From contig JAYVCD010000364.1 of NCBI GenBank assembly GCA_043750125.1, forward strand, positions 1-11,911: a DNA stretch of 11,911 nucleotides. Direction: 5' to 3'. This document shows positions 3,548-8,450 of the stretch, in pieces. The notes under the pieces are model-generated. The model searched no databases, was not told the origin of the DNA, and worked only from the letters and a program-made list of their open reading frames with translations. A program made the translations under genes and the position numbers. Every line of letters begins with the position of its first letter. Positions within the stretch are counted from its first letter, which is position 1. This DNA comes from Archangiaceae bacterium. GTDB lineage: Bacteria; Myxococcota; Myxococcia; Myxococcales; Myxococcaceae.

Positions 3548-4507
3548 ATGCAACCCACCATCGATCGTGATCCGCGCGTCCGTTTCAAGCACCCCGTCCG
3601 GGTGGTCCCGATTGGAGGGCCGCCCCGGGCGTATCGGGTCCTCGCGAGCAATCTGTCGAAAGAAGGAATGTTCCTGCGGATGCCGACTCCGTTCGACGCC
3701 GGGACGAAGGTCGCGCTGTCGCTCGAGGCGGGAGGACGGGTGCTGCCGTTCGCCCAGGCCGAAGTGGTGTGGAAAGACCTGGAAGAGAGCAAAGCCCCCG
3801 GTCGCGGAGCCGGTTTTGCCGTTCGCTTCACCGGCTTTCTTCACCCCCGCGCCCATGAGCTCGTCGACTACCTCGTCGCGAACCTCGAGACTGGAAAGCC
3901 GCTGCGGCCTCCCGAACCGGTCTCACCCGGGCGAAAACGGCGGATCTGGATCGCCGCCGGCCTGGCTGCCGTGGTGCTCGGCGCAGGGGTGGTCGCGCGC
4001 GCGGTTCTGACCGGCGGGGACGAAACTCCGACCCCCGCGATCGTCGTGGCCGTGCCCCAGGCGGCTCCGCTCGTCGTCGAGGACAAGCTTGCCGCCCCGC
4101 CTCTGCTCGAGGCTCCCGAAGTCCTCGCCAGTCCGGTGCTCGCAGCGATCGTCGACGTGAAGCCTGAATCAGCGCCCAAAGTGGAAGTTCAATCCTGGAA
4201 AATTCCCTCGGGTTCGATTCGAGCGATGACCGCGAGTCTTCAAGGACCTCAACTCGAGTTGGTCTTGACGCTGGCGCCAGGCGCTTCGGTCACCCGCGCT
4301 TTTGCGCTGGGCCATCCGGACCGGGTGGCTTTTGACGTCCGCGGCGCGGTTCCGAAATTGAGCTACGCCCTCGCGGGCACAGGGGTCGTTTCAAAAGTGC
4401 GCGTCGGGAAACTCCCCCACGGCACCCGCATCGTCATCGACTTGTCCCGCCCCCCCGGTAGGGCAGTCGTCGTCTCGGGAACCACCGTCTTGGTCCCTCT
4501 CCGGTAG
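3548..4507 (+). CDS. PilZ-domain membrane protein with C-terminal AMIN-like domain
   Basis: N-terminal PilZ (NLSKEGMFL...AEVVW...GFAVRF). Basic RKRR is followed by a TM (IWIAAGLAAVVLGAGVVA) and a Pro/Ala-rich linker. The C-terminus has the AMIN-like pattern AFALGHPDRVAFDV...VSKVRVG...TRIVIDL. Confidence 0.8.
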   Translation: MQPTIDRDPRVRFKHPVRVVPIGGPPRAYRVLASNLSKEGMFLRMPTPFDAGTKVALSLEAGGRVLPFAQAEVVWKDLEESKAPGRGAGFAVRFTGFLHPRAHELVDYLVANLETGKPLRPPEPVSPGRKRRIWIAAGLAAVVLGAGVVARAVLTGGDETPTPAIVVAVPQAAPLVVEDKLAAPPLLEAPEVLASPVLAAIVDVKPESAPKVEVQSWKIPSGSIRAMTASLQGPQLELVLTLAPGASVTRAFALGHPDRVAFDVRGAVPKLSYALAGTGVVSKVRVGKLPHGTRIVIDLSRPPGRAVVVSGTTVLVPLR

Positions 4508-4557
4508 TGGACCGGGTGCTCCCGGCACCCCGTGCTCCCGGCACCCCGCGGGTCCAC
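4507..4557. repeat. REP-like palindromic element: 2x16-bp tandem repeat GTGCTCCCGGCACCCC inside a GTGGACC/GGTCCAC inverted repeat
   Basis: Exact units at 4516-4531 and 4532-4547. The first unit forms the hairpin GGGTGC-TCCCG-GCACCC (4514-4530). Outer arms are 4507-4513 and 4551-4557. Confidence 0.8.
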
Positions 4558-4605
4558 GGATCCACCGGTGCGATGGCCAGTGCGTAAGGTTCGCGCCCCG
4601 TCGCC

Positions 4606-5373
4606 GTGCAACTGTCGCTCCCCACACTCCTCTGGCTGATCCTCGTCGCGTTCGTCGCGGGAATCGTCGACGCGATCGCAGGCGGGGGAGGGCTGATCAC
4701 CGTTCCGGCGCTGCTCGCGGCCGGCCTTGATCCACACTTCGCGCTCGGCACCAACAAAGGCCAGGCGATCTTCGGTTCGTTCGCCTCGGTCTTCCGCTTC
4801 GCCCGTGCGGGCTTCGTCAATCCCACGCGGGCGAAGGTCACCTTTCCCCTCGGCGCGCTGGGAGCACTCGCGGGAGCCGCGCTGCTGTTGGTGCTCGACC
4901 GCAACGTCCTCAAGCCGCTGATCCTCGGATTGCTGGTCGCAGCCGGCGCCTTCGTGGCGATCAAGCGACCGGGCAACACCCCGTCCGGGCCGGTTCCTTC
5001 CAGGCCGTTGTTGATCGCCGGGCTGATCGCGGTGTCGATCGGCGCCTACGACGGATTCTTCGGACCGGGGACCGGGACCTTCTTGATCATCGCGTTCGTT
5101 TCGCTGCTTCGCGAGTCCCTTCCCAATGCGACCGGGGACGCGAAGGTGGTGAACTTCGCTTCCGGCCTCGCCACCGTCATCTTGATGGGCATCGCCGGAA
5201 AGGTCGTCTGGGCCATCGCCATCCCGATGGCCGCAGGTCAGTTCCTCGGAGGCCTGGTCGGTGCGTCGATCGCAATCAAGGGGGGCGCGCCCATCATCCG
5301 AGGTGTGGTGCTGTCGGTGGTGGCCGGTCTGGTGGCAAAGCTGGCGTTCGACCTGTTAACTCAAGGACCATGA
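4606..5373 (+). CDS. TauE/SafE (TSUP, DUF81) family sulfur-compound transporter, YfcA-like
   Basis: Very hydrophobic 255 aa protein. Both halves carry the family motifs: AGIVDAIAGGGGLITVPALL...ALGTNK and GAYDGFFGPGTGTFL...AKVVNFAS. Confidence 0.92.
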   Translation: MQLSLPTLLWLILVAFVAGIVDAIAGGGGLITVPALLAAGLDPHFALGTNKGQAIFGSFASVFRFARAGFVNPTRAKVTFPLGALGALAGAALLLVLDRNVLKPLILGLLVAAGAFVAIKRPGNTPSGPVPSRPLLIAGLIAVSIGAYDGFFGPGTGTFLIIAFVSLLRESLPNATGDAKVVNFASGLATVILMGIAGKVVWAIAIPMAAGQFLGGLVGASIAIKGGAPIIRGVVLSVVAGLVAKLAFDLLTQGP

Positions 5374-5600
5374 GCGTCACGATCACCTACTGCAGCGCCT
5401 GAGGGTATTTGGCCAAGGCTGCCCGTGCGGCGGCCGCATTGAAAGACGAACTCGGCGTGGAAGCCGAGTTGATCGTCGGACATTCGGGAATCTTCGAAGT
5501 GGCTGTGGACGGAAGCGTCGTCGTGGCCAAGACCCGGGCCGGGTTTCCGACGCCGGAGCAGGTGGTCGAATCGGTGGCGAAAGTCCTTCCCCGGACATGA
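5370..5600 (+). CDS. Rdx family (SelT/SelW/SelH) selenoprotein, 76 aa, Sec at codon 11 (UGA 5400-5402)
   Basis: ATG at 5370 overlaps the TauE stop (ATGA). It reads MSVTITYCSA-U-GYLAKAARAAAALKDELGVEAELIVGHSGIFEVAVDGSVVVAKTRAGFPTPEQVVESVAKVLPRT*. This is in frame with the track's 5409..5600 ORF. The CxxU motif, the GxFEV motif and the C-terminal GFP are Rdx signatures. Confidence 0.92.
5417..5435 (+). promoter_or_regulatory. Candidate bacterial SECIS element
   Basis: Stem GGCUGCC (5417-5423) / GGCGGCC (5429-5435), 7 bp with one G-U pair. The loop CGUGC has G as its second base and begins 21 nt after the UGA, consistent with the general bacterial SECIS model. Confidence 0.65.
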
Positions 5601-6571
5601 CAGTCATCGCGCGCCCACCGCTGGGCTTTCGGGGGCGCTTGCGTCGACGACTGGGCGCCGCAGTGACCGATGGCTTCTTTCGCGGTGCGGCGGGCTCGGC
5701 CCGGTTGCTGCCGATTTCCCAACCCTGGGTCCATGGAGTGGAAGTCGAGCGCGACGTCAAATACCGCGATTCGCATCTGGCCGAGCACACGCTCGACCTT
5801 TACCGGCCCCGCCAACGCAGCGGACCATTGCCGGTGGTGCTCTACATCCACGGCGGCGGCTTTCGCGTTTTGTCCAAAGACACCCACTGGGTCTTCGGGC
5901 TGGTGTTCGCGCGGCGCGGTTACCTGGTCGCGAGCATCAACTACCGACTGGCGCCGGGGCACGTCTTCCCAGCCGCAATCGAAGATGCGTGCAGCGCCTG
6001 GCTTTGGCTCTTGAAGAACGTCGCCCGGCTCGGCGGCGACCCGTCTCGAATCTTCATCGCGGGCGAGTCTGCCGGCGCCAACCTCTCGGCCGCCCTCACG
6101 CTGGCGACGACCTACCGGCGCCACGAGCCCTTCGCCCGCGAAGTGTTCGATGCCGGCGTGGTCCCTCGCGCGGTCGTGCCGGCCTGTGGCCTGTTCCAGG
6201 TCAGCAACCCCGAGCGCTTCAATCTCACCCCCAACAGCTTCTTGTGGGACCGGATCGCCGAGGTCACCGACGCCTACCTCCACGGAGCGTCCTTCGATCA
6301 CGAGCACGGGCTCGACCTCGCGGATCCGGTCGTCGCCTTCGAGCGGGGAGTAAAACCCGATCGGCCTTTGCCGCCTTTCTTCCTCCCTGCGGGAGGGTGG
6401 GACGTAATCAAGGGCGACTCGACCCGATTGGCCGACGCGCTCAAAGCCCTGGGTGGAACCGCCGAAGCCCGCCTCTACCCGCGCGGCCCTCACGCGTTTC
6501 ACGCCTTGGTCTTCACTCCCAGTGCGCTGCGGTGTTGGCGCGACACGTTCGAGTTTCTCGAAAACCTGTAG
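5597..6571 (+). CDS. Alpha/beta hydrolase, hormone-sensitive-lipase-like (family IV) esterase
   Basis: Oxyanion motif HGGGF, INYRLAP..FPAAIEDA, nucleophile GESAG, acid GGWD, catalytic His in GPHAF. ATG overlaps the selenoprotein stop (ATGA, 5597-5600). Confidence 0.93.
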   Translation: MTVIARPPLGFRGRLRRRLGAAVTDGFFRGAAGSARLLPISQPWVHGVEVERDVKYRDSHLAEHTLDLYRPRQRSGPLPVVLYIHGGGFRVLSKDTHWVFGLVFARRGYLVASINYRLAPGHVFPAAIEDACSAWLWLLKNVARLGGDPSRIFIAGESAGANLSAALTLATTYRRHEPFAREVFDAGVVPRAVVPACGLFQVSNPERFNLTPNSFLWDRIAEVTDAYLHGASFDHEHGLDLADPVVAFERGVKPDRPLPPFFLPAGGWDVIKGDSTRLADALKALGGTAEARLYPRGPHAFHALVFTPSALRCWRDTFEFLENL

Positions 6572-6611
6572 CACTCTGCGCTTCGCAATCGTTGCGAAGC
6601 GTGAGTGCTTT
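6571..6611 (+). terminator. Long hairpin directly after the hydrolase stop; probable terminator or 3' stabiliser of the tauE-selW-hydrolase operon
   Basis: GCACTC-T-GCGCTTCGCAA-TCG-TTGCGAAGCGT-GAGTGC forms about 17 bp with one bulge and one G-U pair. It is followed by only TTT. Confidence 0.65.
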
Positions 6612-6699
6612 CGGGTCGCGGTGCGCTTTTCGCGTTCATCGCAATTGCATGAAATGTCTCCCTCGTAGATGGGGCAGGAAAGCTGCCATTGTTCAAACC

Positions 6700-7340
6700 A
6701 TGCATGTCGTTCGGGTCGCGTTGTGTGCGTGGCTGGCTGTCGTTGTGTGCAGTACTGCAGCCACACAAACCGCACGGGAAGTGCCCGGTTTTGAGCTCGA
6801 GCATCTGACTTTCAATCCGTCTGCGAAGGCAAGTCTGTTGATCGGTACCGGCGACTTGCCGCCGGAAAGACAACTGCGTCTCGATCATCGCGCACTACCA
6901 GCACAACCCGCTGGTGCTCATTCAGTCCGGTGAGGGGCAGCGTTCGGTCGTGCGCAGCCGAGTCACCGCGCACCTGCTCGCGGCCTACTGAGAATGGGGA
7001 AGCCACCGCGACCTTCGAGTTCGGCTCAGACGACACCGGCGCCCACTACGAGTGCAGCCTCGACGGGAGCCCCTTCGAACCCTGCACATCCAGGCACAGC
7101 CTTCATTCGCTCACGTTGGGGACGCACACCCTCACTGTCCGCGCGGTGGACGCGGCCGGAAATCGTTCGGCTTCCACAACCTCCACCTGGGTCCAGGTCG
7201 AATCGACGGTGCCTTCGAAGCCGCAGCAACGGCTGGTCGGAGGAGGGTGCGGTTGCAGCGCGGTCGACCCGACTGCCTTGTTCGCTTGCCTCGGCCTGCT
7301 GTTCGTTGCTCGGCGCCGGCGGTCGTTCAGGCCACGCTGA
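6700..7340 (+). pseudogene. Frameshifted, chimeric surface-protein remnant: signal peptide + start of myxobacterial OmpA-family beta-barrel + Ig-like repeat + MYXO-CTERM-type tail
   Basis: Frame A (6700-6882): MHVVRVALCAWLAVVVCSTAATQ...PGFELEHLTFNPSAKASLLIGTGDLPPERQLRL. Frame B (6881-6991): SIIAHYQHNPLVLIQSGEGQRSVVRSRVTAHLLAAY*. Frame C (about 6987-7340): ATATFEFGSDDTGAHYECSLDGSPFEPCTS...GTHTLTVRAVDAAGN...LVGGGCGCSAVDPTALFACLGLLFVARRRR. Confidence 0.75.
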
Positions 7341-7359
7341 GGGAAGACGAATTGCGGGC

Positions 7360-8415
7360 TCAGGACTTCGCCGACGCCGACGGAGCTTCAGCCGGCGTCG
7401 GCTTTTCTGCCGGCGGCTTCGTCACTTTCATCCGGTTGCGGGTGGCGGCCGACTCTACGATTCGCCCGATCAGCTGGGTATAGGACAGGCCCCGTTCTTC
7501 GGCCGCCATCGCAAGCTCGCTCTCTTGCTCGAGGTAGGGGTTGGGGTTCACCTCGAGCACGAAGGCTTCACCCGTTTCTTCCGAGATTCGGAAGTCCACC
7601 CGGGCGTAGTCATTGATCTTCAGGGCCTTGTAGGCGAGCAGGGCCGATCGTTCGATGCGGGCCTGAAGATCTGCCGACAAGTCATTGGCCATGATCAACC
7701 GCGGCCCCCCCTCGATGTAGGGGCCGAATTTCACGATCCGATCGGAAACCCGGGGCTCGCCCTTGTTCCAGTCGCCCCAGTCGAGCTCGACGATCGGAAA
7801 GATCTCGGGCCGGGTCGAAGTACCGACCACCCCCACGTAGACCTCGCGGCCTTCGATGAACTCCTCGGCCAGCGCTTCGTCCGAAAACTCTTTTCGAATC
7901 TCGCGCACCCGCCGGGTCAGCTCTTCCCAGTCGGATACGACCGAATGCTTGCCGATGCCCAACGAGGCGTCCGAGCGCGACGGCTTGACGATCAGCGGGA
8001 ACTTCATCCGTCCATTCGTCTCGAAGGTCTCTCCGTCGAAGGTCGCGAAGTTGGGCGTCAATACGTCGTGGTAGCCCAGCAGCTGCTTGGTGAGGATTTT
8101 GTCCTGCGCCAACAGCAGCCCCGCGGTGCCCGAGCCGGTAAAACGAATGCGGGCCATCTCCATCAGCGCGGCGACGTTCACTTCCAGCCGGTAGTCGTCG
8201 GCGAAGGTCTCGCAGACGTTGAACACCAGGTCTGCCTGAGCCGCTTCGATCGCGGTCAACAAGTCGAAGACGCGATCGTGAACGCTGACCGTGACCGTCG
8301 TATGGCCGAGCTCCTTGAGCGCGTCGACGATGTGACCCACCACCGGATCGATAGGCTCACTCGACGGCTGGTAGTGCAGCACTGCAATCTTCAGTGAGGG
8401 AACCGTCGACGCCAT
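7360..8415 (-). CDS. D-alanine--D-alanine ligase-like ATP-grasp enzyme (non-canonical)
   Basis: ATP-grasp motifs FTGSG, QDKILTK, FPLIVKP, ASLGI, EEFIEGRE, YARVDFR, LEVNPNP. It lacks the GGxSxE and LHG motifs of housekeeping Ddl. The start is either 8415 (preferred) or 8427. Confidence 0.85.
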   Translation of the reverse strand: MASTVPSLKIAVLHYQPSSEPIDPVVGHIVDALKELGHTTVTVSVHDRVFDLLTAIEAAQADLVFNVCETFADDYRLEVNVAALMEMARIRFTGSGTAGLLLAQDKILTKQLLGYHDVLTPNFATFDGETFETNGRMKFPLIVKPSRSDASLGIGKHSVVSDWEELTRRVREIRKEFSDEALAEEFIEGREVYVGVVGTSTRPEIFPIVELDWGDWNKGEPRVSDRIVKFGPYIEGGPRLIMANDLSADLQARIERSALLAYKALKINDYARVDFRISEETGEAFVLEVNPNPYLEQESELAMAAEERGLSYTQLIGRIVESAATRNRMKVTKPPAEKPTPAEAPSASAKS

Positions 8416-8450
8416 TGCGCCGAACATAGCCCGTCACTTGCGGACTGCGT

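Follow-up and report, generated by a model that had tools for sequence, protein, structure and literature searches.

We analyzed a stretch of DNA of 11,911 bases (hereafter the window), which is the entire contig JAYVCD010000364.1 of a metagenome-assembled genome of a soil or sediment myxobacterium (Archangiaceae bacterium; 460 contigs, 89.4% complete). Reading and translation of positions 4606-6611 revealed three co-directional open reading frames (ORFs) on the + strand: tauE, encoding a permease, selW, encoding a small SelW-like protein with a predicted selenocysteine (Sec), and est, encoding an esterase. Our results suggest that these genes form a real three-gene operon of Archangium-like Myxococcaceae, arranged behind the TSUP/TauE gene, and that selenium dependence of the esterase would be a passive by-product of this arrangement and not a conserved sensing device. 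We give this reading a probability of about two in three. What raises the finding above chance is that the TGA codon of selW was kept in 63, and the gene order in 21, of the 67 loci that we compared; the overlaps between the genes are unremarkable when taken alone.

A SelW-like selenoprotein gene between a permease gene and an esterase gene

The middle gene encodes a SelW-like selenoprotein, a member of a known family. Its ORF is open only with read-through of the TGA at codon 11, which yields the motif C-S-A-U. The protein matches the Pfam family Rdx (PF10262; 3.8e-13; 49.9 bits relative to a cut-off of 22.6) and the NCBIfam family CXXU_selWTH (TIGR02174; 45.3 bits relative to a cut-off of 34.2). 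The AlphaFold2 model (predicted local distance difference test of 93.1; predicted template modeling score of 0.79) presents the order beta-alpha-beta-beta-beta-alpha. Compared with solved structures using Foldseek, this model reached template modeling scores of 0.83-0.87 with the SelW-related proteins 3dex, 2fa8, 2ojl, 2oka and 2obk, 0.64 with mouse SelW (2npb) and about 0.55 with thioredoxins.

The conservation of the TGA codon was examined in two sets of SelW loci. The first set was obtained by a protein search of the window's own genome and 60 relatives: 31 genomes matched and 30 loci were fetched with flanks of only 1.5 kb, leaving out the weakest match (genome G040). The second set was obtained by scanning one genome per species and contains 42 loci, five of which are exact duplicates of the first set, giving a combined sample of 67 unique loci (30 + 42 - 5). 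The CxxU column contains TGA in 63 of these loci and a Cys codon in the other four, and the protein is conserved on both sides of it. Both the C and the U/C of the motif are invariant in the alignment of 30 sequences.

We then aligned 57 nt around the UGA, without gaps, to search for a Sec insertion sequence (SECIS); 59 distinct rows were left after dropping four identical ones. A stem starting 14 nt downstream of the UGA is paired in 93.2% of its cells and has changed on both sides in 29 of them, with a covariation score of 0.281 relative to 0.158 in shuffles (none of 500 shuffles reached the observed score). Sliding the partner strand, as a control, reduced the pairing to 22-73%. At the pair 24-36, for instance, we counted CG in 35 rows, UA in 17, UG in five and GC in two, and both columns are synonymous third positions of Ala codons. 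In the loop, G29 is invariant and G31 is conserved at 90% or more.

The genome itself contains a tRNA-Sec (65 bits; anticodon tca in ARAGORN), the wing domain of SelB, within a frame of 680 aa, and a gene for SelD with a TGA of its own. Because the CxxU motif is kept in 63 of 67 loci, the hairpin covaries at synonymous sites and tRNA-Sec, SelB and SelD are present, we predict that the UGA is a genuine selenocysteine codon at which Sec is incorporated. The initial annotation of the window had already read the middle gene as a Sec-containing Rdx/SelW-like protein, and the comparative evidence bears this out. Gene callers will overlook the 76-codon selW, so that the permease and esterase genes will seem to be separated by a "gap" of 230 nt.

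The first gene of the unit encodes a permease of the TSUP/TauE-SafE type, whose members are known for the transport of sulfite and organosulfonates. It matches TauE over the full length of the Pfam profile (PF01925; 3.1e-43; 148.6 bits; positions 1-237 of 237), and its nearest NCBIfam family is PRK10621 (YfcA-like, NF007909), with a score of 166 bits that remains below the equivalog cut-off of 383. We searched for TauE and for the esterase across the same 61 genomes (the window's own and the 60 relatives). Across the order, TauE is nearly universal and present in a single copy, conserved in the manner of a housekeeping gene: an ortholog is found in 44 of the 61 genomes and in 33 of the 37 genomes of the family, own genome counted. 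The protein contains no cysteine and therefore offers no thiol-redox partner.

The third gene encodes an alpha/beta-hydrolase (Abhydrolase_3, PF07859; 2e-37; 129.4 bits in Pfam), with sub-threshold matches only to the hormone-sensitive-lipase (HSL) subfamilies of NCBIfam; its best solved relatives are Est8, Est2 and similar enzymes. The oxyanion motif HGG (H85-G86-G87) and the nucleophile elbow (G156-E-S-A-G160) are invariant in 32 of 32 orthologs, as are D269 and H299, which occupy what we take to be the places of the catalytic Asp and His of the family. The gene is intact by its sequence and enzymatic activity is predicted. A conserved N-terminal motif starts at residue 4-5 of the orthologs, which indicates that the ATG at 5597 is the true start, and not an in-frame TTG or GTG further on. 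Two cysteines of the esterase are conserved (C197 in 30 and C313 in 27 of the 32 orthologs). We considered SelW as a dedicated reductant of the esterase and found this idea unsupported, as C197 and C313 do not track the presence of selW.

The initial annotation had also described a strong hairpin closing the unit, and we indeed found one of 40 nt over the esterase stop codon (-36 kcal/mol; z = -6.0; none of 200 shuffles as stable; z = -4.9 on a 75-nt stretch). Scanning positions 4300-6900 for the terminator consensus returned a single site, inside tauE, relative to 2.4 expected; the scan missed the closing hairpin, which has no T run.

Table 1. Features of the tauE-selW-est unit, with their positions in the window
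Feature	Position	Strand	Details
tauE, TSUP/TauE-SafE inner-membrane permease	4606-5373	+	255 aa, GTG start, 0 Cys; PF01925
ATGA overlap, tauE stop TGA / selW start ATG	5370-5373	+	spacing -4
selW-like (Rdx family) gene, predicted selenoprotein	5370-5600	+	76 aa, C8-S-A-U11; PF10262, TIGR02174
In-frame UGA, predicted selenocysteine codon 11	5400-5402	+	TGA column conserved; Sec genes in genome
Putative bacterial SECIS-type hairpin	5417-5435	+	7-bp stem 5417-5423/5429-5435, loop CGUGC 5424-5428; covariation
ATGA overlap, selW stop TGA / esterase start ATG	5597-5600	+	spacing -4, without SD-like motif
est, alpha/beta-hydrolase esterase of the hormone-sensitive-lipase family (family IV, GESAG type)	5597-6571	+	324 aa; PF07859
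G+C-rich terminator-like hairpin over the esterase stop codon, without U tract	6570-6609	+	folding energy

Gene order and its variants in relatives

To establish how widely the three genes occur together, we searched the 67 unique SelW loci with the TauE and esterase proteins of the window using tblastn. All three genes were found in 21 loci, always in the order tauE-selW-est. Two other loci contain tauE-selW with esterase fragments only, one contains selW-est with no visible tauE, nine contain tauE-selW without esterase, and the remaining 34 contain selW with neither neighbor. Some of these last loci have short flanks, such as L034, which lies at a contig end. All the linked loci of the first set belong to family f1, which is that of the window, and those of the second set were assigned to Myxococcaceae, Archangiaceae, Archangium or, more broadly, Myxococcales/Myxococcota. 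The initial annotation had called for a survey of gene neighborhoods across Myxococcota, and what this survey yields is a conserved linkage that is confined to one clade of Myxococcaceae, the Archangium-like genomes. Two of the relatives with the triad (G008 and G012) are single-contig genomes. A scan of metagenomes yielded 35 loci, six of them duplicates; the 29 new loci comprise two triads, one selW-est at a contig edge, two pairs and 24 loci with neither neighbor. Many of these loci lie on short contigs and nearly all are high-GC, like the family already sampled, so that they constitute no test of the pairing outside the family.

The genes surrounding the unit are not the same from one locus to another. 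Upstream of the triads and pairs we found AMIN/PilZ, AAA or LTXXQ genes, and downstream ddl-like, peptidase M2, Na/H exchanger or OmpA genes, which indicates that the unit was retained while its surroundings changed. The gene order and the tight junctions persist in more than one genus and down to an esterase identity of 56-69%. On a SelW tree, which is based on 77 columns and is poorly resolved, linked and unlinked genes are nonetheless strongly clustered (six changes relative to about 22 in shuffles). A maximum-likelihood tree of 32 esterase orthologs places all 21 triad esterases in one group, an inner node of which has supports of 99/93. The triad therefore seems, from the esterase tree, to have had one origin.

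The unit is modular. Esterase orthologs (E <= 1e-25) were identified in 19 of the 61 genomes, one of them partial; seven adjoin selW and 11 do not, and we inspected ten of the latter regions (all except that of G057). In G004, which belongs to the genus of the window, the esterase (83% identical) follows tauE (80% identical) after a gap of 2 nt, with the same PilZ/AMIN neighborhood as in the window and no trace of selW. Its esterase branches inside the triad clade, as sister to the esterases of the window and G001 (100/98), and this nested position indicates that selW was lost there. In G024, the esterase lies about 130 nt behind tauE and possesses its own GGAGG and a GTG start. In G016, a 505-aa ORF without Pfam match (L086, 1463-2980) stands between tauE and the esterase, and selW is located elsewhere in the genome. 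In the five genomes that present only tauE-selW, no esterase ortholog was detected anywhere, and two of the five hold a partial paralog with 41-43% identity.

All four states are found within one genus (g1): the triad in G000 and G001, tauE-selW in G003, whose genome has no esterase ortholog, tauE-est in G004, and tauE alone in G002, where it is followed, after about 135 nt, by the gene of a secreted protein. This secreted protein shares a conserved stretch after its signal peptide with the product of the gene that follows the esterase of the window.

Translational coupling and selenium dependence

The three genes had been described as joined by ATGA stop/start overlaps, and reading of the sequence confirmed both. 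For the 21 scored loci, the distance from selW to est was counted to the earliest in-frame start from -4 onward. It is -4 in 11 loci, +4 in three and +12 in two, and -1, +1, +3, +7 and +10 in one locus each; it thus lies between -4 and +4 in 17 of the 21. Two of the eleven -4 junctions have an alternative start (an ATG at -1 in L061 and at +8 in L035). Of the 32 junctions between tauE and selW, at least 10 have a spacing of -4 and most others one of +2 to +30. One junction measures 96 nt, and another measures 451 nt and contains an opposite-strand ORF. The tauE stop is mis-set for L018, L031 and L075 in this listing of tauE-selW junctions; the ORF table gives spacings of -4 for L018 and about +60 for L031.

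No Shine-Dalgarno (SD)-like motif (GGAG, GAGG or AGGA) was found in the 20 nt upstream of the esterase ATG of the window, in agreement with the earlier remark that this gene has no convincing SD of its own. The same holds for all 11 junctions of the -4 class, and GGAG or GAGG is present at five of the ten other selW-est junctions. According to the available part of a 2025 review (PMC12548453), no other spacing of co-directional genes is nearly as common as NTGA, and coupling, which reaches its highest efficiency from -4 to +3, extends as far as +25 or +40; all 21 scored junctions fall within this range. Both junctions of the window share the geometry of the NTGA (-4) coupled pairs of that review. 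Translational coupling across the junctions is thus plausible from their geometry. The part of the initial annotation that read the overlaps as termination-reinitiation junctions of a compact unit stands, but this geometry is also the commonest one and carries little information by itself.

Two observations touch on these junctions. A third NTGA overlap occurs in the same window, where the genes of trehalose-6-phosphate synthase (17-1165) and phosphatase (1162-1917) overlap by TTGA (1162-1165), and this motif is therefore ordinary. One further Archangium triad, L081, stands outside the 21 scored loci, as no canonical esterase start was found: at 2729-2760, the esterase frame runs on in frame after the selW stop, with no ATG, GTG or TTG before the N-terminal motif. 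The frame may use a non-canonical start or be reached by read-through of the stop codon, or the apparent lack of a start may stem from a sequencing error.

Taken together, a path of expression can be proposed. A single mRNA would start upstream of tauE and end at the closing hairpin. Ribosomes that finish tauE would reinitiate on selW at the first ATGA, SelB, bound to the SECIS hairpin, would bring about Sec insertion at codon 11, and ribosomes that finish selW would reinitiate on est at the second ATGA. If both reinitiation and Sec insertion operate in this way, the reinitiated share of the esterase would scale with the fraction of ribosomes that insert Sec and would drop when selenium is scarce. 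Within the genus, selW, est or both were lost with the rest of the unit left intact, and where selW alone is missing the esterase would couple directly to tauE. We consider that the odds are roughly even that esterase output in the organism of the window is measurably selenium-dependent. What the proteins do together can only be guessed, and with low confidence: the SelW-like protein would be a small thiol/selenol reductant and the esterase an enzyme of the cytosol, and co-expression alone would link them to the permease. It may also be that the SelW-like protein and the esterase have the same small, sulfur-containing molecule as a target. We dropped an "RNA unfolding" model of the coupling, as no stable structure sequesters the esterase start (z = +0.87).

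Several of our results weigh against the reading of a real operon with passive selenium dependence. The argument for a functional link among the three proteins is their inherited gene order, which apparently has one origin (one clade in the esterase tree), and this order could thus represent neutral synteny. Each gene also occurs without the others: selW has neither neighbor in 34 of the 67 loci, the esterase stands with neither tauE nor selW nearby in seven of the ten inspected regions, and tauE is found with or without them. Regarding the SECIS hairpin, RNAalifold predicted just three pairs in a different register, and single-sequence folds were no better than shuffles for the region after the UGA (z = -0.33) as well as for the tauE/selW junction (z = +1.13), so that the hairpin is supported by the comparative count only; a search of the whole window against Rfam at E <= 1 returned no SECIS family, the sole match being a chance internal ribosome entry site. 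SelA (PF03841) was not found in the window's own genome, an absence that is not meaningful because this genome is only 89% complete. The ends of the transcript are marked no more clearly: no promoter site was found by a scan of positions 4300-6900 for the sigma-70 consensus, which may not fit this phylum, and the closing hairpin lacks a U tract and its sequence is not conserved at the other triad loci. A look-up of sequencing runs that contain the stretch listed five DNA runs from two studies and no RNA run. Finally, the esterase start does not lie in unusual RNA structure, which is compatible with independent initiation.

Among the alternatives, the one that survives best supposes that there is no functional link at all: selW and est would ride on the promoter and ribosomes of a constitutive permease gene ("expression piggy-backing"), and the gene order would result from descent and genome compaction. 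The near-universal, single-copy distribution of TauE agrees with this view, as do the seemingly single origin of the triad and the presence of all four states in one genus. The gene after the esterase of the window is a decayed remnant, so this site is prone to indels; SelW-like genes elsewhere stand in many unrelated contexts; and no fusion of an Rdx domain to TauE or the esterase was found among 677 longer candidate proteins, which is weak evidence. However, order and tight junctions survived to an esterase identity of 56-69% although both flanks had changed, and the esterase stayed joined to tauE after the loss of selW instead of drifting away. We consider this alternative unlikely.

The initial annotation had proposed that codon 11 of selW acts as a selenium-sensing switch for the esterase, and that TauE moves a sulfur or selenium compound that the Rdx protein reduces. 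In this scenario, the Sec codon would be an adaptive gate on the esterase, perhaps also acting on RNA polymerase through polarity. The locus of the window offers the layout that such a gate would need: the esterase start overlaps selW by -4 without SD, like the other junctions of its class, the UGA lies about 195 nt upstream of it, and all 21 scored junctions allow coupling. Recoding in E. coli requires sufficient selenium and is only 30-40% efficient in the account given in the accessible text of PMC4513850, and in Treponema primitia the amount of transcript beyond the Sec codon of fdhF is under the control of selenium (PMC3892789, in part). But the same part of the latter study found downstream transcription of E. 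coli fdhF unchanged by selenium limitation, and the variants among relatives argue against the gate. If it were adaptive, the gated gene should be kept behind the Sec gene wherever it is present, and it is found without selW in G004, directly behind tauE, in G024, behind its own GGAGG, in G016, where selW lies elsewhere, and in seven of the ten inspected regions, where it stands alone. Five of the ten junctions other than -4 have an SD-like motif of their own, and nine loci, as well as two with esterase remnants, keep tauE-selW without esterase. No Cys form of selW was found in any triad among the 67 loci, which leaves no Sec/Cys comparison. The second part of the proposal is unsupported: TauE has no cysteine and is present in 44 of 61 genomes irrespective of selW, SelW stands alone in about half of its loci, and a Pfam scan of 32 ORFs in seven loci outside the family identified neither TauE nor Abhydrolase_3 beside SelW-like genes. 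The adaptive switch is disfavored because the closest relatives keep the esterase without selW, and selW without the esterase, and we regard it as quite improbable.

A narrower version would confine the gate to the SD-less lineages with -4 junctions, including that of the window; there, codon 11 would be a true selenium gate, through loss of reinitiating ribosomes and perhaps Rho-type polarity, and the TSUP permease and the SelW-like protein would be a functional pair. We hold this version to be very improbable. Last, the reading of the TGA as a true stop or an assembly error, with a pseudogene or spacer as middle "gene", is effectively refuted: a standard ORF listing does give only a 63-aa, TTG-started ORF (5409-5600) and SelA was not found, but the TGA stands at the exact same column in loci of different species, with the C-x-x motif and both sides conserved, the SECIS hairpin covaries, the Sec machinery is present and the read-through protein is predicted with high confidence to adopt the Rdx fold.

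Known systems and surrounding sequences

Zhang, Gladyshev and co-workers reportedly described bacterial SelW-like selenoproteins in Sargasso Sea data. The same authors described them from complete genomes and from the Global Ocean Sampling data (PMC1794560 and PMC2398784, both available in part). The protein of the window resembles the PF10262/TIGR02174 proteins of these studies in its length (about 75 aa), its N-terminal CxxU, its thioredoxin-like fold and a SECIS that closely follows the UGA within the coding region. Cys homologs were reported to be very few in Sec-using organisms in the part of PMC1794560 at hand, where Sec was suggested to be the original form of the family; likewise, only four of our 67 loci contain Cys. 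The difference lies in the context, as selW is here the middle cistron of a conserved three-gene unit of Myxococcaceae. The available portions of the two studies mention no permease or esterase neighbor, and in the available text of PMC2398784 (supplementary tables aside) the words "operon", "DUF81" and "permease" each occur zero times.

Operons with selenoprotein genes have been reviewed recently (PMC13188914, 2026): the accessible part of this review covers grdA-grdB, prdB-prdC, frhA-frhD-hdrA(-glpC), Prx with SELENOW-like, SAO and Tso. In these operons, as would be the case here, a selenoprotein gene is co-transcribed with its partners, and in one of them SELENOW-like is found with a redox partner, Prx. 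However, the reviewed operons join several selenoproteins or the subunits of one enzyme, whereas the window presents a single selenoprotein gene between the genes of a TSUP permease and an HSL esterase, two non-selenoproteins of unrelated families for which no shared pathway is known; neither a TauE permease nor an esterase is named among the reviewed operons in that part of the text (PMC13188914). The principle of the gate discussed above is known from fdhFSec of T. primitia, where a Sec UGA and its SECIS render the downstream mRNA selenium-dependent via translation, which was not the case for E. coli fdhF (PMC3892789, in part). There, the effect was observed within one gene, by quantitative reverse-transcription PCR and RNA-seq; in the window, it would concern a separate downstream cistron and is a prediction.

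Our full-text literature searches found no paper linking SelW-like proteins with TauE or bacterial selenoproteins with DUF81, and none among the listed matches that links TSUP, TauE or sulfite exporters with selenium. The tauE-selW-est arrangement thus appears to be undescribed, as the initial annotation had supposed, and lineage-specific. Its novelty lies in the gene context rather than in the kind of element.

Few selenoproteins are as widespread as the bacterial SelW-like proteins, for which no function or partner is known; the TSUP permease and the HSL-type esterase of this conserved and tight operon are two candidates for such partners. In addition, a single genus provides a natural allelic series (triad, selW lost, esterase lost, both lost) in which the polarity of a Sec codon on a downstream cistron can be studied. 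If the gate and the functional pair were both true, the unit would constitute an operon-level use of Sec recoding that is undescribed for any bacterial selenoprotein operon. The functional pair, if true, would give the most abundant family of marine selenoproteins its first functional handle, for example in the handling of sulfur or selenium oxyanions at the membrane.

SelW-like genes were observed in other contexts as well. One metagenome contig (L111) carries two tandem SelW-like genes about 130 nt apart (353-565 and 694-912). On another (L122, 117-4187; GC 0.51), the SelW-like gene stands among genes for a DGC domain, a low-molecular-weight phosphatase/ArsC-like protein, DUF169 and an SBF/Acr3-like permease; these arsenic-type surroundings represent another permease-adjacent context for the family. 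In G038 (L027), a Redoxin/AhpC-TSA gene (991-1695, - strand) is divergent from selW (1498-1719, + strand) and overlaps it by its longest ORF, which recalls the association of Prx with SELENOW-like in the accessible part of PMC13188914.

Finally, we noted several features of the sequence on either side of the unit. The 98-nt spacer between the PilZ/AMIN gene and tauE contains a perfect tandem duplication of a 16-nt unit (two copies, 4516-4547), and each copy can form a short G+C hairpin with neighboring bases; these copies could terminate the upstream gene or belong to the promoter region of tauE. Downstream, the gene found behind the unit in relatives survives as a decayed remnant at positions 6682-6988. 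This remnant matches only approximately the first 110 residues of a 632-aa secreted protein with OmpA/thrombospondin repeats (intact in G004), and the match is split over two frames, which indicates a frameshift at about position 6880. No convincing gene was found at 6990-7360. A 467-aa ORF without Pfam match (6994-8397, + strand) lies antisense to a D-Ala-D-Ala-ligase-like ATP-grasp gene (7360-8427, - strand), whose G+C content at third codon positions is of the coding type, and this ORF is probably a spurious product of high GC-content.

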